Shown here: one piece after another, positions 10,140 through 53,134 of the stretch
How positions within the stretch are numbered: position 1 is the first letter of the stretch
How the letters are laid out: each line of letters begins with the position of its first letter
Assembly (NCBI GenBank): GCA_963745835.1
Contig: CAVUZH010000024.1
Location: 329,558 to 393,557, forward strand
Reading direction: 5' to 3'
DNA: 64,000 nt
From: an uncultured delta proteobacterium
GTDB lineage: Bacteria > Desulfobacterota > Binatia > UBA9968
Translations under genes and position numbers: made by a program
The notes under the pieces: generated by a model
What the model was told of the DNA's origin: nothing
The model's input: only the letters and a program-made list of their open reading frames with translations
Databases searched by the model: none

Positions 10140-10901
10140 CGTCGTCTCCCGAGACGCTGTACTCTGCCGGTTGGCGTGCCGCTTTCCCCAAGGACCTTAT
10201 AGCCGTGCAGAGCGACGTGCAGCTCGCCTTGGAAATCCGAGACCTCGCGCACCTCCAGGCGTATGGTTGACTGCGGCGCAAAAACAATCGGCTTGGCGAA
10301 ATATCGAAAGGGCCGGTCGCCATTGGAGATGCCCAAGCCCGCCGTGCTGAGAATCGGTTCGCTCTGAAATTCGCGGCCAGAGCCTTCGTCAAACAGCGAG
10401 TACAAGAACTGGATGTTTTCCGGCGGGGCCGCAACTACCTGAAAGAGATTTTCCAGGACGCTCGGATCCAACGGAATATTGCCGCCGTTCTGCAGCGCGA
10501 GTTCCACAATATCTGGATTAAGTTTGAAACCGTTTTTGAGCACCGCTTCCGCTCCGGTCTCGCGCTTGAGTAGCCGGGACGTCTCGGGCAGCTTGGCATC
10601 GAGGCCGTCGAGCAGCGGACCGATCACATCGTGCAAGCTGAATCGTTGGCCGGCGTCGTGACAAGGATGATCGGCGCCGAAAGCTTGGGACCGAAAGTCA
10701 GCGCGGCGACCTTCGGCACCAGTCCGTAACCGATGGAAACGGCAACGAAGGTCGCTTCGATACTTACGGTGACGGTACGATTAAGAACGTTGTCGCGCCT
10801 GCCGGTCAGATCGTAGCGGAAGGCGTATTCGAACGGCACCGTGCGCCGCGACGTCAAGGCTCGGTCTTCGGCAAATCCCGACGTGACTGAGCCGGCGTCA
10901 T
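10136..10901 (-). CDS. Single beta-sandwich (jelly-roll-like) structural protein, paralog of 10898..12253, frameshifted
   Basis: ATG 10901 overlaps the upstream TGA. VPFEYAFRYDLTG...FVAVSIGYG...SGREFQSEP...NGDRPF..FAKPIVFAPQSTIRLEV...LHGYKVLG. Confidence 0.7.
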
Positions 10902-12253
10902 CGGCGCATCCCCTGGGAGTTGATTCCCAGCACTTTGAAGCCTTGGAAGACGAAGTAAAGCGTGCCGCGGCCAAAGTGTTCTTGAACAGTAACGCGGATC
11001 GCGGCGCGCGGTCTGAAAATCATGGCCCTCGCGAGCTTTTTAAACGGCCGGTCGCCGTTGGCGATGCCAAGCCCGGCTATATTATGGATCGGCTGGTTCT
11101 GCAGATCGCGCCCAGCGCCGGCGTCATAGATCGATAACGAAACGAGACGTCTTCGGGCCGATTGAGGTTCTCGAAAATTTTGCCGGCGACGCTCGCGCGC
11201 ACCTTATCGCTCAAGCCGCCTCCGCTGTCGAAAGCGATGCGCAGAAAACTCGGACGAATTCGGATCCCGCCGAGCAAAGCGTCTTGCGGCAAGGCGCCGA
11301 GCGGGAGTCGCGAGAGCTTGAACGTTTTTCCGCACCGCCCTCGCTCGGCGGACTGACAATATTGCCAGGCAAGGTAACCGGGATCTCAGCGGCTCCCGTT
11401 TCTAAGCCATAACCGATTGCAGTTGTGACAAATCCGCCTTCAGCGTTGATCGGAACTTCGGTTTCAATCAGGTTTTCGGCGCGGCCGCTGAGTTCCAGGC
11501 GCGCCACGTAATCAAACGGCACGACCCGTTCCGACGGCTGGCCGATGGTCTCGATGCGGCACATGGGGGAACCGTGCAAGCGCCGCAGCAAGGGCTCCGG
11601 ACAGTTGGATGCGCCGAGCAGTTTGTAGCCGTAGAGAACGATAAACAGGGTTCCTTTGACACCTTCGGAACGTTCGACGATATGCAGCCGAACGCTCGAG
11701 CGCGGCATGAAGGTCAATGGCTGTGCAAGCTGACGGAAAGGCCGCTCGCCATTGCTTTTTCCGAAGGAAGCGAGATTGTGGTGGGCTCGTCTTGCAGTTC
11801 GCGCCCGCTGGCGCTGTCGACGAGGCTGAAGAGAAAAGAAATATCTTCAGGAGGTTTTAGCCGTTCGAGGATCCCGGCGTCGAACTGAGGCGCTAACTGT
11901 TGATCGAATGCGACCGGGCGCAATCGCGGACTCAGCCGGAAACCAGTAATCAAAGCGTCAACCGGAATTTTCCCGAGCTTGATCTCGTTCGCCGGGAGAG
12001 AGCTCTCGAGGGAGACAGCCAGCGATCGGACGCGCTCCTCTTGCAACCCGTAGCCGATGCCGGTGGCGACAAAGACGCCGTCGCTGCTGATGTTGATCAC
12101 ATCCTGAACGATGTTGCCTGGAATGCCTTTGAGCTGAAAACTTGCCGCATAGTCGTACGGGATCACGGCCCCCGGAACTGCCTGCGGCGCTGTCCCGCCG
12201 CGCCGGACCGGCGGAAACCTGCGGGTGTATGGACGTGTTTGAGTCGATATCAT
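10898..12253 (-). CDS. Two-domain tandem beta-sandwich (jelly-roll-like) structural protein, frameshifted
   Basis: Two copies of the module P[YF]DY.A...L.G...N...FV.T.IGYGL...PED.SF....D...GR.LQ..P...G.RPF..LA....F.PR...R...G[YF]K.LG. They are fused in frame within ORF 11211..11717. Confidence 0.7.
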
Positions 12254-12384: not shown

Positions 12385-13407
12385 TTACTGCACGTCTCTG
12401 GTCATGTAGCCGTCCAACACGACCCAGATGTAGAGCGGGCCGTAGATCCTCTGCAGCTCTTTCAACACATCGGCATCCGGCACTTCGATTTCGACCCGGA
12501 AGTTCTGCTGTTTGTCGATGAATACCGGCTCAGCGAAACGGAACGTGGCGGTCGGCGAGGGTTCGCCATGAGTTGTAAACGCCGCCGTCTCCGAATACGG
12601 GCCGGCGCCCGCGGGGAAAAACCACGTGGGCATCTGAATCATGATCTTTTCGCCGACATAAAGCGTCGTAACCGTGTTGTAGATGAACTTGCCGATGAGC
12701 GTTCCGGCGCCGTTGTTCGGGTGAATCTGTGCCTTTGGCGGCCGTTTGCTGTCGGGGCGCACCTTCTTGATGATCGCTTCGATATCGGAAACATGCAGCC
12801 AGATCACGCCTTGCATATTGACGATATCTTCGCCGCCGATGGTTTTGTCCGGCTCCGAATGGAAGAACGTAAACGACTCTTCGTCCGCGAACAGCGGCGC
12901 ATACCCGTCTCGGTCGGCACGCGCTTCAGTCAACAGCTCCATGAGCGGGCCCAAGCCGATCTTGAAGTTGGCGAGAATCGGCTCGGCGTTACTGGGCAGA
13001 GTCGTATCGATGAGCGCTGGAATCGTCGAGTCGATGATTTTGTTGTTGTCATCGGCAATCACGATGGCCGGATTGCCGGCGTCCCGCGCCACGAAGTAAA
13101 AAACGTTCTCGTCTAGATCTTCGACCGGATACTCTTTGTCTTCCACCGTGATGTCGTCGGGGAATTCCGGCGGCAAATCGCTGATCACCACCCGCATCGC
13201 TCGCGCCTCGAACGTATTGTAGTGCGGCAAAAGCGAGGCCGACTGCAGGTTGGTTTCCAATTTGGTCTTGTTCTGCACATTGACGAAGAATCGCAGGACT
13301 CCCGTACTTTCTGCGTCTCGCAGTTGTTTCTCCGGTTCCACGGTGAGCGAGTCATAGATGGGCAGATGGACTTTTTCTCTTACGCCTTGTACGACAGCCA
13401 TGGTCAT
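12385..13407 (-). CDS. Putative major shell/capsid protein (jelly-roll-like with large acidic insertion)
   Basis: Intact 340 aa ORF with AAAGGAGG RBS, flanked by stem-loops. Shares strand motifs with the downstream paralogs (FEARAMRV; FAEPVFIDKQQNFRVEI; VVLDGY). Fold is inferred. Confidence 0.55.
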   Translation of the reverse strand: MTMAVVQGVREKVHLPIYDSLTVEPEKQLRDAESTGVLRFFVNVQNKTKLETNLQSASLLPHYNTFEARAMRVVISDLPPEFPDDITVEDKEYPVEDLDENVFYFVARDAGNPAIVIADDNNKIIDSTIPALIDTTLPSNAEPILANFKIGLGPLMELLTEARADRDGYAPLFADEESFTFFHSEPDKTIGGEDIVNMQGVIWLHVSDIEAIIKKVRPDSKRPPKAQIHPNNGAGTLIGKFIYNTVTTLYVGEKIMIQMPTWFFPAGAGPYSETAAFTTHGEPSPTATFRFAEPVFIDKQQNFRVEIEVPDADVLKELQRIYGPLYIWVVLDGYMTRDVQ

Positions 13408-13462: not shown

Positions 13463-14162
13463 TCACCACAGGGGCTTGAACGTCTCCGGTATCGAAGTTG
13501 CGGTTCCCGGTTGCGCCGTGAACCCGTTGCAGCTGGCGTTCACGGTCGCGGGTTGAACGTAGCCCTCGAGCGGCTCCGCCTCGCCGAATCCGCTGACGTT
13601 GGTCGGAAGCGGGCAACCGGCATTGAACGCCGGCTCCATCTCGCGCACGTATCCATCCATCTCGGGCTCGCCGTAGATCTCCGGCGATTCACCGTAGTAC
13701 CCGTACGGTTCAGTCTCACCGTAGGGCATCTCTTCGGAGAGATAGGGCTCCTCTCCGTAGTAGCCGACCGGCTCGTACTGGCCGTACATCTCCGGTTCCC
13801 CGTACGGCTCCGGCGCCTGCGCATAGTAGCCATACGGATCAATCTCTCCGTAGGGCATCTCTTCGGACAGATAAGGTTCTTCGGCGTAATAACCTATCGG
13901 CTCGTATTGGCCGTAAACATCCGGCTCGCCCCAGCCGTACATTTCAGGCGGCTGGGCGTAATATCCGTAAGAATCGACCTGGCCATAGCCGTAGCCCTGA
14001 GAGAGATACGGATCCTCGGCGTAATAGCCATAATCCTGCGGCAGCTCGCCGTAATAGCCCATGTCGGGCTGCTGAGCGTAGTGAAATCTCATTGTTCTTC
14101 CTCCATAGTTTTCGCTCGGGATTAACAATCATGACTTCGTCAAATCCAAGGTTACGTTTCAT
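13463..14162 (-). CDS. Acidic Tyr/Gly/Glu/Pro tandem-repeat protein (putative scaffold), frameshift near 14118
   Basis: Start MKRNLGFDEVMIVNP (14162) joins ORF 13463..14128. About 39-aa repeats of YGEPEMYGQYEPVGYYGEEPYLSEEMP type. Confidence 0.75.
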
Positions 14163-14196: not shown

Positions 14197-14577
14197 TCAG
14201 CCTTCGATTCCTCGCGCGTGATCCGGTAACGTCCGCCGATGATGTAGAGCTGGGTTCCTTGCGGGATTGCACGCCAGTCGCGCCGGCGTCTCCATAAAAT
14301 GGATGTAAGTCCTGGATTGCTTCGGCGTTTGTTTGTCCGAGCTGTAAATCAGACCACGCAGATAGCCCAGATGCACCAGCACCTCTGGAATCACTCTCCG
14401 GCAAGGCGCGCGAACCACCTGCGCAGGTGCAAAGCAATGGAAACAGGCGAAATTTCTTCTTGAGCTCGCTTGAATGCAGCCTGGAGGCCGCGCTCGCACC
14501 GACCGCGTGCCTGGCGAGATGCGCGAGCGATGACATAACTCACTGAGGTCGTCCTTATCTCTGAGGTGCGTGTTCAC
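14197..14577 (-). CDS. Small hypothetical protein, frameshifted
   Basis: GAGG-preceded GTG at 14577. Stitched: …FHCFAP…VLVHLGYLRGLIYSSDK…TYIHFMETPARLACNP-QGTQLYIIGGRYRIT-RGIEG. Confidence 0.55.
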   Translation of the reverse strand: MNTHLRDKDDLSELCHRSRISPGTRSVRARPPGCIQASSRRNFACFHCFAPAQVVRAPCRRVIPEVLVHLGYLRGLIYSSDKQTPKQSRTYIHFMETPARLACNPARNPALHHRRTLPDHARGIEG

Positions 14578-14587
14578 CGGATATCCT

Positions 14588-15320
14588 CTAACGTCGTCGC
14601 CGCACTCGGACCGGCCTTCTGACGGACATCGCCCACTTCGGGTACAACAGGCCGGCGGCGGAATCATGCGTCGGGTTGCGCGTGCGCAGCGGCGCCCGGA
14701 ACGAGGCCTCCGGGACCGCGCCATGCGAGGCAGCGCATGTAAAGTCGCCGCGGCTGAACTCCAGTGTAAGGATGGGGACGTGGGATCCACCCTGGCGGCA
14801 TGTACGGCCGCATCGGCGGCGCCATCATTGGCATGGGAACCTCGGCGAATTCATCGCCAGCATCCGGTGCATAGACCTGTTGTGCCGCCTGGGCTACAGG
14901 CTGCAACTGTTGGATCGCTCCTGGCAGCGCTTGTTGGTACGCCTGTACCGCCGGCGCAAGTTGCTGCATGACGCCCGGCATAGCGCTTTGAAAAGCCTGC
15001 ACCGCGGGCGTGAATTGTCTGACGACTCCGGGAAGTGCCCGCTGCGCCGCTTGAGCTATCGGGGCAAAGCGTCGAAGCGCGCCCGCTGCTCCTCGAATGA
15101 TCCCCGGCAATGCTCTCGCCGCATGGGGAAGGACTTTCGCGGCAATAGCCGGCAACACCTTGGCCGCGAGCGGCGCCAAAAACGGCAACCCAACGGGATT
15201 GCCAAAACCGTCGTAGACGACTTCACCCATCGGCTCTGGATACTCTCCGTATTGAGAACCATAGATTTGAGCATCCGGAACTTCATGCAGGTATCCCGTT
15301 AACGTGTCTTGGACGAGCAT
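14588..15320 (-). CDS. Amphipathic-helix repeat protein with acidic leader and basic tail (putative membrane-active internal protein)
   Basis: Acidic YGE leader, YDGFG, then GLPFLAPLAAKVLPAIAAKVLP and about four 18-aa Q/A/P repeats. Probable frameshifted tail VRRPVRVRRRR-stop at 14588. Confidence 0.65.
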
Positions 15321-15861
15321 TTCATTCCCTCCTTTTCAATTTCACAAACCCGTTTCCAAAGCGCCGGCGGCGCCCATCCTATCCGTCGTTCACAGTCGCG
15401 TCCACGGCGATCCATCGGCCGCGAACATTCACCTCTGGATAAATGTGCGAGTATGCATGCGGCTTGTTCGGGCGAAAACCGGCCAACACCAGCCTCACCG
15501 GATGACCGGTAGACATGAGCATCGCGCCCAAAAGAATGGTCATATCGTCGCAATCGCCCGCCCGAAGCTCGAGCATGCGACGCGCTGAGTGCAGCAACTC
15601 CACACGGAAGATATCCCTCGTGTAGCGAATATTGCGGCGCACCCAATAGAACAAAGCGCAGACCTCGCCAAACCGGTTTTTTGGACGGATGCCGTACTCG
15701 CGAAAGATTTGAATCGCCTTTTGTCGAACGTAAAAATCTTTGGCTCCCGCGAGAATCATCCGCGCAATAATTTGCGCCGTCACCAGGGTGCCCCCGGTTC
15801 CATTGGGAACGCGATGAATGCGAATGCGAGGCGTCACGAAACGGCTGCATAATTGTATCAT
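15299..15861 (-). CDS. Transglutaminase-like cysteine protease (putative maturation protease)
   Basis: GDCDD (Cys), HIYPEV (His), WIAVDAT (Asp). The C-terminus likely continues by frameshift (…IGWAPPALWKRV…). Confidence 0.85.
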
Positions 15862-16113
15862 TCACACCACACCGAGAATCCGTTGAATGGGAACGATCAG
15901 TTGTTGCTTGATTCCTTCGACCTCAACAACGGCAAAAGCGCCCTGCGAACTGCCGCTGTCTGAAATATCAAGAACCTTCCCTTGCAGAAGATCATCTCCG
16001 TAAACTTCGAGAAGCAGCATTTGAACATCTGGAACGTAAACATCGCGGATTTTGAAATGGACCCAGCGATGCTTTAGTCGAGAAGTCTCGCTCTTGAGTT
16101 GTTCCGCAGCCAC
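15862..16113 (-). CDS. Small beta-barrel (SH3/KOW-like) hypothetical protein, first gene of the operon
   Basis: LQGKVLDISDSG...FAVVEVEG...LIVPIQRI. Start moved to GTG 16113 because the sigma54 promoter lies inside the longer ORF call. Stop abuts the next ATG. Confidence 0.6.
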   Translation of the reverse strand: MAAEQLKSETSRLKHRWVHFKIRDVYVPDVQMLLLEVYGDDLLQGKVLDISDSGSSQGAFAVVEVEGIKQQLIVPIQRILGVV

Positions 16114-16125
16114 ACTGCGCAGTTC

Positions 16126-16141
16126 AGCAAGCGACGTGCCG
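16126..16141 (-). promoter_or_regulatory. sigma54 (-24/-12) promoter
   Basis: Minus strand CGGCAC-GTCGC-TTGCT matches YGGCAC-N5-TTGCW; it faces the operon and lies just downstream of a bEBP gene. Confidence 0.85.
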
Positions 16142-16233
16142 GTTCGGGGCGTGCGTAATAACGAGACGAACCCTAGCAATTTTCGATAGCTGGGCTCTGC
16201 GCAGGTTTACGTCGTTGGAAGCAGCTAAGACGA

Positions 16234-16587: not shown

Positions 16588-18237
16588 CTAGCGGTCAACG
16601 GTAGAGTTCAGGTGGTACTTGCGCAGTTTGTTATAAACGCTGCGCGACGTGATACCAAGAAGGCGTGCGGTTTGGGACTGGTTGCCGCGTGTCTTGCGGA
16701 GCGCTGCCTCAAGGAGAAGCTTTTCACAAGAAGCAAGCGACCCATTGAGCCGCCAGTTGTTCGCATCCAGCAACCTGACAACGGACGAAGTCACCTCGCG
16801 CTGTGGCGACGACGCCAGCGGACGATCATCAACGGATCGCGGCGGCCCGTGAGATTCTTCTCGCAATGCAGGCTGCCAGCGCGATAGTTGTTGCAAAATC
16901 TCCGGCGGCAGATCAGCCAGAGTGAGAGGGGCAATATCGTCCTTTTTAACCAGCGCCTGCCTGACGATATTCTCCAGTTGCCTCACGTTGCCGGGCAGTC
17001 CGGCTTCTGCGAGCGCTTCAATGAACTCGTCTTCGACAGACAGCGGCAGCGCCGGTGCGAGGGCGCGATACTTCTGAAAAAAATAATCAACCAGCGGTCT
17101 AATGTCCCCCGGTCTTTCCCGCAATGACGGAGTATGGATCGACAGTACGTTGAGCCGGTAAAAAAGATCTTCGCGAAAGTTCTTTTCTTTCACCATCTGC
17201 TCGAGAGCCCGGTTGGTTGCGGCAATGACTCTTACATCGACGGACGTTTCGTCGTCCTCGCCAACGCCCAAGACGGTCTTTTCTTGCAGCATGCGCAACA
17301 GCTTGGACTGTAGCCCATCCTCCAGTTCGCCGATTTCGTCAAGAAAGAGAATTCCGCCATGCGCGGAACGAACCAGGCCTTTTCGATCGCGATTCGCACC
17401 CGTGAATGCGCCGCGTATGTGGCCGAATAGTTCACTTTCAGCTAAGCCCGCGCTGATGGCGCCGCAATTGACTGCGACGAAAGGGCCGCTGCGGCGTTTC
17501 GGGTCTAAGGCATGAATAGCATGGGCCAACAGTTCCTTGCCCGTACCAGTCTCACCCGTAAGCAGGATGGGGAGGTCGCTAAGAACACTGACTCGGAGAA
17601 CTGTGCGAAACACCGCCAGCATTGATTGGCTTTCCCCAACAATCCCCGCCTGGATCATATTCTCTTTGATGCATCGCTCATCCTCCTCCCGTCGTGCTTC
17701 GGCCTGAAAGAGCTGAACGAGCAGCTGGAAAAGTTCGGACTCAAAATCTGATCTCGAGCTATCCAACAAATTGGATGCGCCGGCTACAAGGGGCAAGCAG
17801 CGAGTCCGTATCGGCCAATTGTGAGCTCCGTCTGCATAAGCCAATATGCCAAGTCCGGAGCCTTTAAGAGCATGCAGAGCGTCCAGCAGAGATGCGTTTG
17901 GGCCAAGCTCGTCGTCCAATGCGACCAGAAGAACATTGGCGCCAGACGTGGCGCGCGCTCCTCCGACTTCGTTGATATCACTAAGCCACCTAGGGGTAGC
18001 GCCGCACTGCGCGATGATTTGCTCAAGGCGCGAGCGGTTAAGGTCCCCACGATCAAGCAGCATAATCGTAGGGGGTGAACTATGCGTGGGTATTAGGTTG
18101 GAATTTGACCGATAGTCTGCGGGAGAACTTGACAGAGCTTTCGGCTTGGTTGGCTGACTCATCGGCACGCTGGTCATCTTTCGGCGTGTGCGTAACTTCG
18201 AAGCTGTGATCAAAGCTGATCGCATCGGTGTCGACAC
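16588..18237 (-). CDS. sigma54-dependent enhancer-binding activator (AAA+, Fis-type HTH, degenerate receiver-like N-terminus)
   Basis: GETGTGKE, GAFTGA, LFLDEIGE, FREDLFYRL, PGNVRQLEN, GNQSQTARLLGI. True start is uncertain (18162 or 18063 possible). Confidence 0.95.
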   Translation of the reverse strand: MSTPMRSALITASKLRTRRKMTSVPMSQPTKPKALSSSPADYRSNSNLIPTHSSPPTIMLLDRGDLNRSRLEQIIAQCGATPRWLSDINEVGGARATSGANVLLVALDDELGPNASLLDALHALKGSGLGILAYADGAHNWPIRTRCLPLVAGASNLLDSSRSDFESELFQLLVQLFQAEARREEDERCIKENMIQAGIVGESQSMLAVFRTVLRVSVLSDLPILLTGETGTGKELLAHAIHALDPKRRSGPFVAVNCGAISAGLAESELFGHIRGAFTGANRDRKGLVRSAHGGILFLDEIGELEDGLQSKLLRMLQEKTVLGVGEDDETSVDVRVIAATNRALEQMVKEKNFREDLFYRLNVLSIHTPSLRERPGDIRPLVDYFFQKYRALAPALPLSVEDEFIEALAEAGLPGNVRQLENIVRQALVKKDDIAPLTLADLPPEILQQLSRWQPALREESHGPPRSVDDRPLASSPQREVTSSVVRLLDANNWRLNGSLASCEKLLLEAALRKTRGNQSQTARLLGITSRSVYNKLRKYHLNSTVDR

Positions 18238-26765: not shown

Positions 26766-28080
<1,315 letters not shown>

Positions 28081-30551: not shown

Positions 30552-33500
30552 ATGCAGACCATTCTCGGTCCCTTCCATCCACATCTGGAGAACGCGCTAG
30601 TCGAGGAGATTTGTAAATACAAAAATGCCGACCTCATCTGCCCGCTGCTGATTTTAGTTCCTTCTGATGCCCTACGGCGCCGTTTGAAAGTTCTGCTTTC
30701 GCGGGAGCGCAGTCTATCTTTCCTAAATCTGCAACTGCTGACGTTTTATCAATTGTCGGCGAAGCTGTGCGCTGAAGCGGAGGGACTCAGTCCGCCGATC
30801 CTGCGTGAAGAGCTCTTTCTCGAAGAGGCGTTGCGCCAGATCATCCGCACGCGGCAGCCGGGCACGGAACCCTTCAGCGGTATCGAGGAACGCGCCGGCG
30901 GGTGCGCCGCGCTCTGGCAAAGCCTCAGAGATCTACGGGACGGAATGGTGCAACCGACTGTCGCGGAGGAAGCGCTGCGCGAAGGTCACTTCGATTCGAG
31001 AACACAGGAAAGGACAGCCAATCTCTTGAACCTGCTTCGGAGTTTTCTTAGTTTCTGTCACGAGCGCGACATCCGAGATTACTCCACCCTCGACAAGTTC
31101 GCCCTCGCACAGGCACCGTCATCGGTTTTCCTGGGGCAATTCGCGCAGGTTTTCTATTACGGCTTCTACGATTTAACCCAAATTCAGGTGGATCTTTTCC
31201 ATGCCGTCGCGCAAACCTACCCAACGACTCTGTTCTTCCCTCTGTTAAACACTCAGCCGGTCCATGAAGGCTGGCAATTCGCGGCGCGCTTTTATCACGG
31301 CTACGTACAGGGCCGGGCCGGTACCGAGGCGACAAACAATCTGGTGATCGAATCCGCATCACGGAGCTGAGTTGCCTCAAAGTTTCGGTATTTTTGATCA
31401 ACACCCTCTAAGGCATTACCAATCGATGCCTGCCAGTTGGCGGTGCCGGATCTTTAATACTTTCGGCATTCACGACGAGATCAGCGCGGTGGCAAAGCAA
31501 ATCCTGCTTCTGACCGGCGAGGACAACATGGCCTTCGATCAGATAGGCGTGGTCGCGCGCACTCTCGATGATTATGGCGCCACCATCAAAGAGGTCTTTG
31601 CCCAACATAAGATCCCGATCAGCGGCTCCATCGAGGAACCCGTGGTGCAGTTTCCTTTGACCAAGGCTGCCATCCTCTTGATGAACCTTGCGGCGCAAAA
31701 CTACCCGCGCTCGCACGTGATCGATCTGTTGTCGTCTGCCTATTTTCGACTGAACGGGTCGGCAAAAGAGCCAAGCGAGCTTCGTACCGATCTATGGGAT
31801 TTGGCCAGCCGGGAGCTGGCGATCTGCAAAGGAATCGAGGAGTGGCAAAGAATCGACCGGTACACCTCCCAAGGTATGAAGTTGTCCCGAGTATCGGATG
31901 ACGATGACCGGCGCTTTATCGAGATTCCAGCAGCGCAGCTGCGCACTCTGGCAACTATTTTAAAAAGACTCCATAGCCATTTATCCCGGTTACCGCAGCA
32001 CGCCTCTTGGAGTGAATATGCCGATTCATGGAAGAAATTGTTCGCGGAATATCTCGGCATCGAGCCTGAACCGAGCGCCGACTTCAACGCCGCTGATAGA
32101 TTGATCTGTAAGCAAATCATCGAGATTCTCGATGAAATCGCTGGTCTTGACGCGGTTCAGGACGATGTTCCGCTAGGCGACTTTACCGAGAGTTTTGCGC
32201 GCTGGCTCGCCCGCAGCACCATCGTCGAAAGCGATAAGAATATAGGTGGCGTCACCGTGTCGAGCGCCAGCGCCGCTCGCGGGATTAGATTTCGCGCGCT
32301 ATTCATCGTCGGCATGAACGAAGGCGTTTTCCCACGCACGATTCGTGAAGACGCGTTTCTGCGCGATCGCGATCGCGAGGTGCTGGAGCGCGATTTCGGC
32401 TACAAAGTGAGTCAGAAGCTCGCCGCTTTCGATGAAGAGAAGCTGGTTTTTACCCTGCTGGCAAACTCGGCCAGCGAGCGGCTCTATTGTTCGTTTCAGC
32501 GCTCCGATGAAAGCGGCAGAGCGTTAGCGCCGTCATGGTATCTCGACGAGCTCAAACGCGCATTTTCAGGCGGAAAGCAAAAATATGTTGCCGAAGATAC
32601 GATTCCGCGCAGCGCCATCGACAAAGCGATTTGTCATCCTTTCGATCGCGAAGAATTGCTCCTCCCGTCCGAGTTAGCTATTCGCCTCAACCTCACAGGC
32701 AGAGACTCAAAATCCTTGATCGAAGCGGCCGATCTTTCGCCCAATCTATACAAGCAAGGCCTTGAAAACATACGACGGATCGATCTCAGCACCGAGCGGG
32801 TCGGTATGTTCGACGGCATGATCCAAGCACCGGCTAAACACTGGCTGCGCTTTACACAGCACGGCCTCTCGCCCACCGCATTGGAACTTTACGCACGCTG
32901 CCCATTTCAGTACTTCGCGCGCCAGATGCTTGGACTCGAACAGTTGGAAATACCTGAAGAAGTGATCGAGCCATCGGTAGCGGAAGCCGGCAAGCTGGGT
33001 CACGACATTTTAAAAGCTACCTACCAGGTATTAATCGATGCGCGGCTATTTCACAAAAGATTCCTCATTCATCGATGTCGATACATTTTATCGGCGGCGT
33101 CTCAGGATATTTTTACCAAATATGAGAGCCGAGCATCCTGTCGGTTATCCTTTGCTCTGGGCGAGCTTTTGCGAAGGCTTAACTGAGCTTACCCGCGCTA
33201 TTCTGCACGCTGATCTCGAAGATCTCCGCCAATCGGGCTATACGCCCGTGGAATTGGAACTCGGCATAACCGGCCAGCTACCCGGTGACTGGCCCGAGGT
33301 GATTCGAGGCCTTGCAATTCGGGGACGCATCGATCGCCTGGATGTGGATCGGACCCGAAATCGTCTGCGCATTGTCGATTACAAGTTCAAACGTAGCAGC
33401 AGTGCTACTGCCGCGGAAAAGGATCTCGATACAGCCGCGCTGCGCGGCGAGAAGCTACAGCCGCCGATCTATTCGCTGCTCGGCAAGTATTGGGTGGAAG

Positions 33501-33829
33501 TCAACGAAAGAGAGATACGCAAGCCCGAAATCGAGGCCACTTTATTCTATATTGCGCCGGCCTGGAGTGATGGCCCGCTCGTGCGAAAGACATTCAGCGC
33601 GGTGACTCTCGGAAGCAAAGTCGGAGAGGAAATTAAAAAAACCGTCGCTGAGCTTGTTACCGGCATCCGATCCGGCAGATTTTTTATGCAGCCAAGCCAC
33701 TACTGCAAATATTGCGAAGTCGCGGAAATATGCCGCAAAAATCACCCGCCGAGTCTCTGGCGCACGGAAAACGATCCGATCACCGCGCCGCACCGACAGT
33801 TGCGCGAGAAAGAGTCCAAAAAGTGTTGA
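30552..33829 (+). CDS. addB: AddB-like helicase/nuclease subunit with PD-(D/E)XK and Fe-S cysteines, frameshifted
   Basis: ORFs 30552, 31372 and 33038 stitched. CPFQYF, RGRIDRLD, IVDYK, CKYCEVAEIC. Confidence 0.85.
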
Positions 33830-36800
33830 TGGTGCCGGCAAAACCGATCGAACTACCGGACGCGCATGACCGCCGCATAGCAGTCGAGACTTTCGATCGC
33901 AACCTGGTGGTCACGGCTGGAGCCGGGACCGGCAAGACAACTCTCCTGGTCGACCGGCTGGTCCATCTATTGTTGCGCAACCCGGACCCTCTGCAAATCA
34001 CGGAGATTGTCGCGCTGACTTTTACCAATAAAGCCGCCGATGAGATGAAGCAGCGGCTGCGCGATCGACTTCAAGATTACCTGCAGGCGGATCTTCGAAA
34101 CGAGCCGGTCGAGGAGACGAAAAAGAAGCTGCAACAACAGGTTGAATCGTTTATTGGGACGTATCAACTCTCTAAAGACGAGCTCGACCGCCGCGTGCAG
34201 GAGGCATTGCGCAATCTCGAGCGCGCCGAGATCGGCACGATTCACAGCTTTGCGGCCACTCTTTTGCGCCTTTTCCCATTAGAAGCCGGCGTCGATCCGC
34301 AGTTTGGTGAGGACGACGGCAAACAGTTCCGGCGCATCTTTGGCCAGCAGTGGAATCTCTGGCTCGATCACCAGCTCGCGCTCGAAAACAGCCACGCCGA
34401 CGATTGGCGCAAGGTTCTCAAACAGCTCACGCTCGAGCAGATTGAAGAGCTGGCGAAATCTTTATGCTCCGAAACTGTTCAGCTCGATCAGCTCGAACCG
34501 AGCAAACTAGGACAGGCCATCTTGCGCTCATGGCTGCGCAACCTTCTCGAAAGCGCCTCCGGCTTAAGCCAACGCCATCCGGAAGATCGGATCAACGAGA
34601 GGCTCGTGCGCGCCGCATCGATGGTGATCCAGGCATTTCTCGATGGCGGTGATTTTAGCGGGCCGGCTTTAGCCGAACAAAGCGCTTATTTGCTCGAGCG
34701 CTCCATCGACCGGGACACCAAAGGCTGGAGCGAATGCGATGTCGAGGAGGCCCAGAGGTTACTTAGGGCGGCAAAAGGCTTGTGCAGAGTCGATGCAGAT
34801 TTGTCCCGGCTTATCTGGCAACTCCTGGTGCCCTACGCCGCGCGTTTCCGCGAGACATTTGTCCATGAAGGATTCATCTCATTCGACGGCCTGCTGATTC
34901 GCGCGCGCAATTTGGTCCGCGACCATCTGCGCGTGCGTGAAGAATTGAAGCGCCAGTATAGGACGATTCTCATCGATGAATTTCAGGACACCGATCCGAT
35001 TCAGTACGAGATTCTACTTTATCTGGCTGAACAGCCCGGCAACTCGGCCACCGATTGGCGCAAAATCAAACTGACCCCCGGGAAAATTTTTGTCGTCGGC
35101 GATCCCAAGCAATCGATTTATGCATTCAGGCGCGCCGACATCGAGGCTTACCTGGAAGTGGTCGAGAAAATCATCAAAGCGCAAAACGGCGTTGAATGCC
35201 GTTTGGTTACCAACTTTCGCAGCGATGCAGCGATTATCAATGTCATCAACGGCGTCTTTTTACCCCTGATCCAGCCACAAACCGGTGTGCAGCCGCTCTA
35301 CATAGGAATCGAACCGGCGCCGCAGCAGAGCTTCGCGTCGCATCGCCGGCACCGGCAAATCTCTGCCGAAAGTGCTCGTACGAAAGATCGTAGCCCCGGA
35401 TGAAGAGGTGGACGCCGACACGGCTCGCCGTCTCGAAGGCGAGAGTCTCGCAGCTTGGCTCCAGGATCAGGTGTTGGAACCGGGCCAGCTTCGTCAATGC
35501 AGAAGGCGAGCAGGCTCAGGCGCAGCCCAAAGACATTGCGATGCTTTTCCGCAAGCTCACCGACATTCATGATTATCTCGAACCGCTGCGGCGTCGCGGC
35601 ATTCGTTATGTCGTTGAAGGGGAGCGCCATTTCTATGCCGCCAAAGAAATCATCGATGCCGTCAATTTGCTTCGAGCCATCGACAATCCCAACGATCGCT
35701 TGGCGCTCGTCGGCGTCCTGCGCTCGCCCATCGGCGGCATGACAGATCAGAGTCTTTATGATCTGCACTGCCAAAATCTACTCGACTACCGTCTTTCGGA
35801 ACAGGTTAGCGGTAAGGATTTTCCACCGGCGCTGGCAGAACTTTACGCTACCTTAGCCAAGCTGCACAGGGACTGCCGCACCTTGCCGGTGGGCGACGCC
35901 GTATCCCACATATTCCATGCTCTGCCGCTAAAGCTTTTGGCGGCAAGCCATCTTCACGGCGAACAGGCGGTTGCTAACCTCGATAAGTTGCGCCGGCAGG
36001 CCGAACTGCTCGGGCGCGAAGATAGCGCGATGACCTTCAAAACAGCTATCCGCCAGCTGCAACAGCGCGTGCTCGACGTCGAAGAGGAAGGCGAAAGCGT
36101 GCTCGCCGAAGAAGCTGTCGATGCGGTGCGCATCATGAGTATCCACAAATCGAAGGGACTTGAATTTCCGATTGTGATTCTCGCCGGCTGCCACGCCGGC
36201 ATTAATGGCCGGCAGAAACGGCCGGCAGAAGCGCTGTTCGATTGGTCCAGCGGACTCACCGGACTTCATGTCGGCTCGTTCACCGATTTGGCCGGCGTCT
36301 ACATCGCTGAAAAAAACCGGCTGAGAGCCGAGGAAGAAACCAAGCGAGTGCTTTACGTGGCGATGACCCGCGCTCGAGAGCACTTGATTGTTTCGGCCGG
36401 CCCGAGCACCAAAAAAGGCGCCGGCAATTTTGTCGGCATGTTGGATGAAGCGCTCGACGATCAGATCGGCGAGGCCGCTCAGTCGAGTTTGATCGACATC
36501 GGCGGTGCCAGGCTTGAAGTGGAACTCGTCGAGGCGAGTCTTACTGCGCCGGGGCCGGCCACCAGCAAGAAAAAGCCCGCCGATAGAAAAAGCAATTGGC
36601 AGAGCTACATCGACACATGGCAGCGCCGTGGGGAAATCTATGGAGCGGCTCTAAAAACACCGGCCTTTGTGACGCCGACGTCGCTCAAACGCAACGAGCA
36701 AGAGCTGAGCGAAGCGGCGGCGACGACTCAGCGATTCGCGCAGGGGCGCACCCCGGCCATGCTCATCGGAGAACTGGCGCACCGATTTCTCGAAGACTGG

Positions 36801-37268
36801 GATTTCGGCAGCGATAAAAAATTATTGAGCAGTCAACTCGATCGTTTTCTTTCTACATCGCTGCCGGCCCAATACCGCGCAGACGCCGATTCCATAGGCG
36901 AAGAGCTGAAAACCATTTTCGAGCGATTTCTAAATTCAAATCTCTACACCGAACTATCCAAGGCTCAGATCCTCGGCCGCGAAGTGCCGCTATTGATCCC
37001 ATGGAACGGCCAGATCATGGAAGGGGTCATTGATCTGATCTATGAGCGCAAGGGTTTGCTTTACCTGGCCGACTATAAGACAGATACGATCGAAAGGAAG
37101 GATTTGCCGCTGCGCGCGCAATCTTACCGCCAACAAGCTGAGATTTACTCGGAAGCGGCGCGCCGCAGCTTGAAACGAGAAATCGCGGCTTTCAAATTGA
37201 TTTTTTTGCGGCTCGGCGAGGCAGTGGAGGTCGATCTTAATTCAAACAAGGAGCTGTGGCTTTTCTAG
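33829..37268 (+). CDS. addA: AddA-like UvrD helicase-nuclease, frameshifted
   Basis: AGAGTGKT, TFTNKAA, DEFQDTD, VGDPKQSIY, SIHKSKGLEF, YVAMTRA, GVIDL, DYKT. Confidence 0.9.
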
Positions 37269-51142: not shown

Positions 51143-52151
51143 GTGACCACAAGAATAATCACTCGCCCGTTGTCAGCAGTCAGCCTTGCTATGGGCGTTT
51201 TGCTGTTTCCGCTTTGCATATCCGCTCGCGCGCAGCAGCCGGACGAAAGTCCCCCGGATAGGATACCTAACTGCTACCTCCCCTTCCGCTGATCGCGGCC
51301 CGCACCGAGGCATTCCGGCAGGGTCTGCGCGAGCTTGGGTACGTGGAGGGAAAAAACATTGTCATTGAGTATCGATATGCAGAGGGAAAAGCTCGATCGC
51401 CTCCCCGCCCTCGCAGCCGAGCTAGTGCGTCTCAAGGTAGACGTCATCGTCACGAGCTGGTCCGACAGCAACCCGTGCCGCCAAGGAAGCAACAACCACG
51501 ATTCCCATCGTCATGACGCAGGATAACGATCCTGTTGGCAACGGGTTCGTCGCCAGCCTGGCGCGGCCTGGCGGGAACATCACTGGATTGTCAACCCTTG
51601 CCCCGGAGATAAGCGGAAAACAACTGGAGCTTCTGAAGGAGATCGTTCCTAGGCTCTCCCGCGTGGCCGTCTTCGGGACTTCGACCGACCCGGGCAACGC
51701 ACAAGCGTTAAGAGAGACGGAACTCGCCGCAGGGGCGTTCGGAGTGAAGCTTCAATACCTGGACGTACTAGGTCCCAAGGATATTGAGACTGCATTCCGA
51801 GCCGCAAGCAAGGGGCGTGCTGACGCAGTCCTCGTGCTGGCGGGCCGCGTCCTCATTTCTCACCGAACACAGATTGCAGAACTCGCGGTAAAGAGCCGGC
51901 TCCCGGCGATATACGGCAGAGCCAGAATATGTGGAAGCCGGTGGGCTTATGACCTACGGCGTGAGCTTCACCGACTTGGACCGGCGCGCCGCCACGTACG
52001 TGGACAAGATCCTGAAAGGCGCCAAGCCGGCCGACTGCCGGTGGAGCAGCCGACGAAGTTCGAGTTCGTCATCAATCTGAAAGCCGCCAAGCAGATCGGC
52101 CTGACGATTCCGCCGAATGTGCTGGCGCGAGCGGACAAGGTAATCAAATGA
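51143..52151 (+). CDS. ABC_sub_bind-family substrate-binding protein, copy 1 (frameshifted)
   Basis: [11 protein letters not shown]; [33 protein letters not shown]. Confidence 0.85.
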
Positions 52152-53134
52152 GATTGAGGCGCGGAGTCATTCATTTCGGTCTACTTGCGATGCTCTTGTC
52201 GCTGAGCTTTCCGATCGAGGCGCAGGAGCCGGCAAAGCTAGTAAAGATTGGGTTTCTTGGAGCCGGCCCCAGTTCGCGGCCCTGGCATGAGTCGTTCCAG
52301 CGCGAGTTCCGGAAACTCGGATATGTCGACGGGAAGAACGTAACCTTTATCCATCGCTTCGCCGATACCAAGTACGAGCGACTTCCCGCTCTGGCTGATG
52401 AGCTAGTTCGGCTCGAGGTTGACGTGATCATCACGCCAGGTTCGAATGACACCCGCGCGGCCAAAAATGCAACCAAGTCGATCCCCGTCGTTTTCTTGGG
52501 AGCAGGGTCTGATCCCGTTACTCTTGGACTGGTTGACAGCCTTGCACGGCCCGGCGGAAACCTAACGGGAGTCAGCTCTATTGCATCCGCCTTAGCCGGT
52601 AAGCGATTGGAGTTGCTAAAGGAAACGGTTCCCAAGCTCTCCCGTATCGCGATGCTGTGGAATCCGCAGAATGCGGGATCTTTGCAGGTGTGGAAAGAAA
52701 GCGAACTGCCGGCAAAGGAACTGTCTCTGCAACTTCATTCCATGGCAATAAACAGTACGGATGAACTGGAGAGCGGTTTCAAAGATGCAGTTAAGGTACA
52801 TAGCGGAGCTCTCGCCGTGACAGCAGGCGCATTGCTCAGCACCTATCGAGAGCAAATCGTAGACCTTGCGGTAAAAAATCGGCTGCCGGCTATAGCCGGC
52901 GGAAGAGAATTCGTCGCTAAGGGGGGGTTGATGTCCTATGGACCCGACCCGATTGAACCGTACCAGCGGGCGGCAGTGATGGTTGACAAAATCCTAAGGG
53001 GAGCCAAACCCGCTGACCTGCCCATCGAGCAACCCACGAAGTTTGAGTTGGTGATCAACCTGAAGACGGCGAAGCAGATCGGCCTAACGATTCCGGCCAA
53101 TGTGCTGGCGCGGGCGGAAAGGGTGATCAAGTGA
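52148..53134 (+). CDS. ABC_sub_bind-family substrate-binding protein, copy 2 (intact)
   Basis: 328 aa with a signal peptide and the same family motifs. Confidence 0.92.
   Translation: MRLRRGVIHFGLLAMLLSLSFPIEAQEPAKLVKIGFLGAGPSSRPWHESFQREFRKLGYVDGKNVTFIHRFADTKYERLPALADELVRLEVDVIITPGSNDTRAAKNATKSIPVVFLGAGSDPVTLGLVDSLARPGGNLTGVSSIASALAGKRLELLKETVPKLSRIAMLWNPQNAGSLQVWKESELPAKELSLQLHSMAINSTDELESGFKDAVKVHSGALAVTAGALLSTYREQIVDLAVKNRLPAIAGGREFVAKGGLMSYGPDPIEPYQRAAVMVDKILRGAKPADLPIEQPTKFELVINLKTAKQIGLTIPANVLARAERVIK

Follow-up and report, generated by a model that had tools for sequence, protein, structure and literature searches.

Adenovirus protein VI starts with a removable N-terminal piece, the propeptide, and the gamma peptide of nodaviruses and the mu1 protein of reovirus are cut at an Asn, mu1 by self-cleavage. 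Protease-dependent maturation and an amphipathic membrane-lytic helix are described for protein VI (PMC7564661); the nodavirus gamma peptide is described as an amphipathic, membrane-active piece freed from the capsid protein (PMC8046363), and in membrane-containing tailless phages, minor membrane proteins are reported to tie the capsomers to the lipid core (PMC9719478). Here we examine a stretch of 64,000 nucleotides (the window) from an uncultured delta proteobacterium of the Binatia (GenBank assembly GCA_963745835.1, contig CAVUZH010000024.1, positions 329,558 to 393,557) and, within it, one minus-strand gene, hereafter the candidate gene. At a rough probability of 0.4, we take its product to belong to a virus-like assembly of jelly-roll proteins, as a masked component that binds or permeabilises membranes and is an analogue of protein VI without homology to it. 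An earlier note on this DNA had proposed a protease-activated membrane-lytic protein, and that interpretation is partly supported, at the level of properties and of context. The peptide strings that it quoted all fall within the minus-strand open reading frame (ORF) 14664-15320, as seen from the ORF list and its translation, and a good ribosome-binding site, AAGGAGGG, lies 6 nt ahead of the ATG. In window coordinates, the parts of the gene are as follows.

14664..15320, minus strand: coding sequence in its main frame, 218 residues as assembled (ORF list, translation and ribosome-binding site)
15189..15320, minus strand: acidic leader, residues 1-44, with the start MLVQDTLTGYLHEVPD, an acidic Tyr/Gly/Glu/Pro spacer and YDGFGNPVG; net charge -7
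15189-15215, minus strand: YDGFGNPVG motif, residues 36-44, the invariant end of the leader
14865..15188, minus strand: six amphipathic units of 18 residues each, residues 45-152; units one and two are basic, units three to six Gln-rich
14685..14798, minus strand: C-terminal motif PPGWIPRP.PYTG..PRR.YMRC..WRGP.GLVP, residues about 175-212, with near-invariant columns in alignments A1 and A8
14588..14632, minus strand: tail-coding segment, AMSVRRPVRVRRRR to the stop, in a frame that differs from that of the main ORF (three-frame translation)

The acidic leader ending at YDGFG that the earlier note described is borne out, with a sharp and conserved boundary at its end. The cationic amphipathic segment placed directly after it is likewise found: residues 45-86 have a net charge of +6, with 18-residue hydrophobic moments of up to 0.68 at 100 degrees. 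This 42-residue 'helix' holds six prolines, and residues 45-62 contain two Lys. Under BLOSUM scoring, the autocorrelation of residues 45-152 has its main peaks at lag 18 (z=9.0 relative to 500 shuffles) and at lag 36 (z=5.0), with smaller peaks at lags 7, 8 and 11 that are typical of amphipathic helices. Of the claim of about four 18-residue repeats, the period thus holds and the count does not: in the 18-residue register, the whole stretch 45-152 forms six units of five turns each, such that the 'cationic helix' and the 'four repeats' are one array, the helix being its first two, more basic units. The hydrophobic stripe of this array stays in phase at 100 degrees per residue over ~108 residues. 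At the DNA level, Tandem Repeats Finder returned 0 rows; the repeats are therefore old and have been kept at the protein level. In a model predicted by AlphaFold2 (AF2) from a 112-row alignment headed by homologue P0001 (95% identical to the protein of the window), residues 2-13 form a beta-hairpin, helices span 48-70, 74-113 and 115-149, and the C-terminal third is disordered.

At least 264 metagenomic homologues were retrieved at E<=0.01, all of them 'hypothetical' and without a name or Pfam domain; motifs were counted in the best 120 of these. The family layout consists of a start motif (ML[VIM]QD[TS]LTG, of the MLVQDTLTG type, in 113/120), an acidic spacer, YDG[FL]GNPVG (117/120), a hydrophobic/cationic segment, a variable helical middle (66-159 residues between the two motifs), PPGWIPRP..YMRC..WRGP (with P.GW[IM] in 117/120) and an oligo-Arg end. 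An Arg run closes the C-terminal end in 116/120 homologues, and 117/120 have at least five Arg among the last 12 residues; the Arg-rich tail that had been thought probable is real, though not in the frame of the ORF. Over 120 distinct instances, the D, G, G, N, P and G positions of the YDG[FL]GNPVG motif are invariant, and charge switches there from an average of -2.97 in the 14 residues upstream to an average of +2.38 in the 20 residues downstream; D or E occurs within 20 residues after the motif in only 8/120 instances. The hydrophobic maximum, taken over 19-mers, starts at a median distance of 2 residues behind the motif; the Kyte-Doolittle value there has a median of 1.37 and reaches 1.6 or more in 13/123 segments. 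Taken over the entire middle region of 115 homologues, the coherent hydrophobic moment reaches 0.263 at 100 degrees, versus at most 0.119 at the other sampled angles; relative to shuffles, the median z is 4.2, and z exceeds 3 in 70/115. Phe, Leu, Ile, Val and Ala form the hydrophobic face and Arg, Lys, Gln, Glu, Gly and Pro the opposite one, with 50% of Phe within 30 degrees of the hydrophobic centre and 72% of Arg and 60% of Pro beyond 120 degrees. Hydrophobic-moment analysis, which the earlier note had named as a check, thus agrees with it, and amphipathic helical periodicity is a property of the family. As for conservation of the helix among homologues, the second check named there, amphipathic character is kept and sequence is not.

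Paralogues in related loci keep the leader, the motif, the hydrophobic segment, the Pro-rich region and the oligo-Arg run, and vary in the remainder; the Gln repeats and the C-terminal motif may be missing, and in some the unit of acidic spacer, motif and hydrophobic segment occurs two or three times. Such multi-unit proteins, with two or three copies of YDG.GNPVG, are encoded at L015:9848-11185, L005:7667-8455 and L007:7109-7705 (L numbers denote loci). In the L015 protein, a hydrophobic segment, a Pro-rich stretch, an oligo-Arg run and an acidic YFAEDPS repeat spacer come in this order after each unit. A fused longer form of the candidate protein was not found, which is weak evidence. A Pfam-A scan of the protein gave 0 families, and a PDB profile search with the family (112 sequences) had its best match, at E 0.1, to an unrelated spike protein; neither search revealed sequence or profile similarity to protein VI. 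NCBIfam returned no match for the protein or for 15 neighbours (one sub-threshold hit concerned a 161-aa ORF at 7124-7609), ESM Atlas returned unnamed clusters only (0.82-0.84), and IMG/VR held no relative of the protein or of the 340-aa protein of the same operon.

Fifteen loci were compared, in metagenome-assembled genomes labelled Verrucomicrobiae, Acidobacteria, Deltaproteobacteria, Alphaproteobacteria, Polyangiaceae and others. The shared gene order is sigma-54 activator, ~72-aa acidic protein, transglutaminase-core enzyme, candidate protein (sometimes as two paralogues), ~110-aa basic protein, acidic Tyr/Gly/Glu-repeat protein, 340-aa acidic protein, ~470-aa protein, ~263-aa protein, ~160-aa protein, 175-aa protein and ~444-aa protein. 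The comparison with protein VI turns on three of these neighbours.

15379..15861, minus strand: gene of the transglutaminase-core (Cys-His-Asp) enzyme, Pfam PF01841, E=1.3e-12
11211..12253, minus strand: ~470-aa protein with two tandem jelly rolls (AF2 pLDDT 76.5, VIA matches), in two ORFs in the window
10136..10974, minus strand: ~263-aa protein with a single copy of this jelly-roll domain and RR.RR at its end; frame-split in the window

Against PF01841 the enzyme scores 48.4 bits (cut-off 23), which places it in the transglutaminase-core superfamily. Cys104, His139 and Asp154 are invariant in 16 enzyme sequences, and the enzyme is 69-88% identical to those of the 15 loci, which come from several phyla; its nearest solved relative is 3isr, a 'putative cysteine protease' (E=0.017). 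A gene of the candidate family directly follows the enzyme gene in 15/15 loci and overlaps it by 1-19 nt in 8/15. In the window, the conserved enzyme C-terminus runs on in another frame to 15299, overlapping the start codon of the candidate gene; the ORF of this frame, 15299-15865, carries RRIGWAPPALWKRVCEIEKEGMKCSSKTR, and the overlap is 22 nt when the shifted C-terminus is read. Complex prediction for the enzyme (L006 first, 16 rows) with residues 1-62 of the candidate protein returned no answer (score 0.00, two runs) and carries no weight in either direction. Further downstream, three copies of one jelly-roll domain are spread over 10136-12253 on the minus strand, two in the ~470-aa protein, which is a single ORF in nine other loci, and one in the ~263-aa protein; both proteins also have Arg-rich ends. 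The jelly-roll profile also matched a 3989-aa protein, P0179; as this is a cadherin-repeat protein, the match was set aside as motif noise.

Because the transglutaminase-core enzyme gene precedes the candidate gene and the jelly-roll proteins come after it, the analogy with protein VI becomes more apt. As in adenovirus, an N-terminal piece is followed by an amphipathic helix, and a cysteine enzyme and jelly-roll proteins are encoded alongside, here a Cys-His-Asp enzyme that would act as maturation protease and jelly rolls that would stand for the capsid proteins. The helix begins directly after the leader, as judged from the switch in charge and hydrophobicity at the motif and from the 100-degree moment. 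The layout of protein VI that the earlier note had invoked therefore stands as regards the properties of leader, helix and basic end and the gene context, and does not extend to homology. Unlike in adenovirus, the enzyme has a transglutaminase core rather than the adenain fold, and the operon is bacterial and controlled by sigma-54; unlike in protein VI, the helix is a proline-punctuated repeat array of ~108 residues with an oligo-Arg end. The nodavirus gamma peptide and reovirus mu1N are similar in that an amphipathic, membrane-active piece occurs in a jelly-roll context, and the motif of the candidate protein has an invariant Asn-Pro; both, however, are parts of capsid proteins, whereas the candidate protein has a gene of its own.

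We envisage an assembly that would be made in the cytoplasm, switched by sigma-54 and built from the jelly-roll proteins. Within it, the acidic leader would hold the cationic array inactive or docked, and the invariant motif would be the site at which the neighbouring enzyme cuts or holds the protein; alternatively, the Asn-Pro bond of the motif might cleave itself, which for this protein is pure conjecture. Once freed, the array would lie flat on an anionic bilayer and then thin, bend or break it, with the oligo-Arg end adding electrostatic grip. The C-terminal motif and the Arg end would anchor the protein, whether on the jelly-roll proteins, on the highly acidic partners or on nucleic acid. 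The membrane in question could be the producer's own inner membrane, where a signal-less wall peptidase would be let out in a holin-like job, or that of a target cell, where the protein would play the part that penetration proteins have in non-enveloped viruses. In the core operon proteins of two intact loci, no signal peptide or transmembrane-grade segment was found, and the post-motif segment is among their most hydrophobic stretches. Given wall enzymes that lack an export signal and an operon devoid of holin-like membrane proteins, the candidate family is the only membrane-breaching candidate.

Several observations weigh against such a masked membrane-active component. The copy in the window is frame-broken, and we infer both cleavage and membrane activity. 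What is conserved of the helix is its character only; the middle region contains 16% Pro, Gln and Arg make up most of its polar face, and on the hydrophobic side Ala outnumbers every other residue, a Pro/Gln/Ala make-up that fits packing of helices on protein as well as on lipid. Conserved end motifs around a length-variable middle would also be expected of a linker or scaffold. The AF2 model is of low confidence (pLDDT 59.8, pTM 0.23), as would be expected for a chain that needs a partner surface.

The main rival, which we regard as possible but doubtful, is a non-lytic structural adaptor (scaffold, cement or ruler), the ends of which would dock on operon proteins while the hydrophobic stripe packs on a periodic lattice. 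Models for such a role are GvpC on gas vesicles, P30 in PRD1 and CsoS2 in carboxysomes. Conservation of both ends around a middle of 66-159 residues fits an adaptor, although a ruler should hold its length. An Ala-rich hydrophobic face and a Gln-rich polar face are in keeping with it, and the prolines of the array suit it equally well; by contrast, hydrophobicity peaks consistently in the post-motif segment, which in some paralogues carries almost no charge over 40-55 residues, suggesting lipid over a protein groove. The adjacent Tyr-rich protein mirrors the end-middle-end design, and the jelly-roll proteins share the Arg-rich ends. Weak PHROG matches to tape-measure proteins (E=0.005) also point this way, but they sit in low-complexity Ala/Gln/Pro sequence, and hhalign of the candidate family against PRD1 P30 gave a probability of 0.16%.

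Condensation of a polyanion or nucleic acid by a core protein, with the oligo-Arg end doing the work and the helices as spacers, seems unlikely. The Arg enrichment of the tail in 117/120 homologues, the Arg ends of the jelly-roll proteins and the strongly acidic partners (net -20 to -44) all agree with it, yet it leaves the invariant motif, the hydrophobic segment and the amphipathic phase unexplained, and no Walker A motif of the packaging ATPase type was found on the operon strand (two chance hits lie in short ORFs). Polyanion binding by the tail may instead be an added function rather than a rival, and could coexist with the other readings.

Alternatively, the candidate protein could be the substrate of a true transglutaminase that cross-links or deamidates its Gln-rich repeats and so hardens a coat or matrix. 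A median of 19 Gln per protein, mostly on the exposed face, together with the intact triad of the transglutaminase-core enzyme encoded next door, would suit such a role, and the Tyr-rich partner is reminiscent of cross-linked coats. Lys acceptors are scarce, however (median 3 per candidate protein and 1-4 per Tyr-rich protein), which makes cross-linking less likely, and the Gln-rich units are missing from many paralogues that have the motif and hydrophobic segment; we thus consider this improbable.

The frame break in the candidate gene lies between about 14640 and 14675. The earlier note began its interval at 14588 because the tail, AMSVRRPVRVRRRR to the stop, is read in the other frame at 14632-14588. 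In the homologues P0001-P0004 (95%, 78%, 80% and 77% identical) the tail is in frame, and the tail segment of the window is letter-perfect against the last 14 residues of P0001. No contig of relatives bridges the break (14632-14712), their contigs diverging at 14632. Compared with intact copies elsewhere, the window has frame breaks in at least six operon genes, namely those for the transglutaminase-like, ~110-aa, Tyr-rich, ~470-aa, ~263-aa and 444-aa proteins. In the same window (26784-28080 and 30552-37268), the reading frames of purA, addB and addA are likewise broken up into neighbouring or overlapping ORFs, three for addB and two for addA, and purA covers only positions 1-314 of its 416-position profile. 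The genome comprises 7.3 Mb in 25 contigs, and the assembly seems to contain many single-base indels. Moreover, short-read-type contigs of close relatives, from two soil/rhizosphere runs, have an extra G behind 15387 that restores the enzyme frame. Because purA, addA and addB are split too, the break in the candidate gene is probably an assembly indel, a real mutation being the less likely reading. That the gene is a decaying pseudogene whose protein is not made in this genome, as the six or more broken operon genes might suggest, is hence most improbable in view of the split housekeeping ORFs, the 7.3 Mb in 25 contigs, the restored enzyme frame and the letter-perfect tail.

Other known systems share single traits with the candidate protein. 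Precursors of amphibian peptides (brevinin, temporin, dermaseptin) likewise place an acidic pro-piece before a cationic amphipathic peptide, and some post-motif segments of the paralogues resemble amphibian peptides in style. With regard to the likeness to brevinin and temporin proposed at the outset, there is no homology to frog peptides, and the composition of brevinin and temporin is unlike a Pro/Gln-rich middle with 16% Pro, 11% Gln and a Gln/Arg polar face. Unlike the amphibian precursors, the candidate protein is far longer and lacks a signal peptide and a dibasic processing site; it differs from the peptides themselves in its many prolines, in Gln instead of Lys on the polar face and in its conserved C-terminal parts. 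A secreted antimicrobial peptide precursor was rejected, as there is no signal peptide and the N-terminus, MLVQDTLTGYLHEVPD, is polar and acidic. Exchangeable apolipoproteins and GvpC also have proline-punctuated tandem amphipathic units with a stripe in phase for ~100 residues, but the period here is 18 rather than 11, 22 or 33, and neither homology nor context links them to the candidate protein.

Three further classes were considered and set aside. The protein is not a holin, as there is no transmembrane helix and the post-motif 19-mer reaches 1.42-1.61 in the homologues of the two intact loci. A tape-measure protein (phrog_305) matches at E=0.005 over residues 60-146 only, and the operon has no tail genes. 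C-terminal sorting signals of the PEP-CTERM or LPXTG type combine a signal peptide with a motif, a transmembrane segment and a basic cluster within about 30 C-terminal residues; here there is no signal peptide, and about 180-200 residues separate the motif from the Arg cluster.

Control of the operon is indicated by two upstream features.

16126..16141, minus strand: sigma-54-type -24/-12 element CGGCAC-N5-TTGCT, the sole match with one mismatch in the 64 kb window
16588..18237, minus strand: sigma-54 enhancer-binding protein (Pfam Sigma54_activat, E=4.2e-64; HTH_8)

In 10/14 loci, a similar element is found 254-345 nt ahead of the enzyme gene (0.012 expected per 100 nt), and a sigma-54 activator is encoded upstream in 12/15. 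Distribution is patchy: the enzyme occurs in 2/41 relatives and in 2/301 genomes of the phylum, the present genome included. Contigs from an RNA library cover relatives of the candidate, enzyme and Tyr-rich genes, which hints at expression in soil, although DNA carry-over is possible. Among the core operon proteins, only the transglutaminase-like one matches Pfam, PHROG or NCBIfam. The operon had no match in IMG/VR, isolated phages or plasmids (judged for phages and plasmids by the 340-aa protein), and no description of the motif or operon was found in open-access full text or bioRxiv.

Like PRD1, PM2 and FLiP/PhiCjT23, the locus combines jelly-roll, capsid-like proteins, putative wall-lytic enzymes and small proteins that may be membrane-associated; unlike in these phages, its conserved block has its own sigma-54 activator, and no packaging ATPase motif, replication gene or integrase was found in it. 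A broader proposal, which we consider rather unlikely as it stands, is that soil bacteria from several phyla share this sigma-54-switched operon by horizontal spread and use it to build a virus-like particle without a tail, with its own maturation enzyme and a masked lytic protein of the protein VI kind; the particle would be a domesticated or proto-viral relative of the PRD1-adenovirus lineage used for lysis, delivery or killing. Its particle parts would be the double and single jelly-roll proteins, without packaging ATPase or replication genes. For the candidate protein and almost all of its operon partners no described family matches, although the operon is common and keeps its gene order across phyla. 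If membrane activity of the masked component were confirmed, the locus would provide a genetically tractable bacterial example of a membrane-breaking protein that is primed by a protease and linked to jelly-roll proteins, and would bear on the origin of the penetration proteins of non-enveloped viruses and on the bacterial domestication of tailless virus particles. The array itself, with its 18-residue five-turn unit, polar-face prolines and oligo-Arg end, would be a natural design for a switchable membrane-active polymer.

The remaining operon proteins are as follows.

15862..16179, minus strand: small acidic protein, first gene of the operon (alignment A14), with a conserved part of about 72 residues
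14197..14530, minus strand: ~110-aa basic conserved protein (..LGELRGLIY.SDRG..GRPRTFIHFMETPP..GGNYRVT.RGIEG; alignment A12), frame-broken in the window
13463..14162, minus strand: acidic Tyr/Gly/Glu-rich repeat protein (alignment A9), with its N-terminal MKRNLGFDEVMIVNP in another frame at 14118-14162
12385..13407, minus strand: 340-aa acidic protein, possibly capsid-like, with 2545 homologues, all hypothetical
9142..9669, minus strand: 175-aa protein with H..G.A.D and H.H motifs (alignment A6)
7707..9041, minus strand: 444-aa conserved protein, the C-terminus of which departs from the family consensus in the window

The true start of the small acidic protein is probably near 16080. The ~110-aa gene lies in ORF 14197-14790, and contigs of relatives show 1-nt differences at 14261 and 14439. 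Members of the Tyr-rich family have net charges of -23 to -44 and 28-49 Tyr per protein; they begin with FDEVMIVNP, continue in variable (P)E.YGYYAE repeats and close with a conserved Cys-containing C-terminus ending in ETFKPLW. The 2545 homologues of the 340-aa protein are clusters at 90% identity. For this family the nearest ESM Atlas clusters (0.97) are unnamed and mostly from viral contigs, and the nearest named ones (0.77-0.78), to be read as a lead only, carry the PM2 P2 and PRD1 P3 capsid domains. With hhalign, the family gave probabilities of at most 0.2% against PM2 P2 and PRD1 P3 and of 4% against the 263-aa family, the suggestive stretch in the latter being local only. Member-by-member Pfam scans returned nothing meaningful for the 470-aa (64 members) or 340-aa (120 members) families, and PDB profile searches with the 340-aa, 470-aa and 175-aa families gave no match. 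The motifs of the 175-aa protein, which matched neither Pfam nor PDB sequences, we take to be a LAS or peptidase M15 zinc signature, as yet confirmed by no profile.

Cell-wall-related genes thus accompany the operon: besides the 175-aa protein, genes downstream in L004, L008, L012, L013 and L014 encode OmpA-like, VanY, M74 and M35 domains, all without an export signal. In the window, four predicted HExxH proteins without a signal peptide are encoded on the minus strand (2-523, 1302-1886, 4131-4985 and 5057-5974); that at 5057-5974 reaches the cut-off of Pfam Aspzincin_M35, and that at 4131-4985 matches below threshold only. The latter begins ..GGLVYDGPGVIGG.., a partial look-alike of the YDGFGNPVG motif. 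The window contains no tRNA genes. On its plus strand it has two paralogous ABC_sub_bind genes, both of 328 aa, at 52148-53134 and 58950-59936, and a stretch of 62.8% G+C at 60-62 kb contains many overlapping ORFs.

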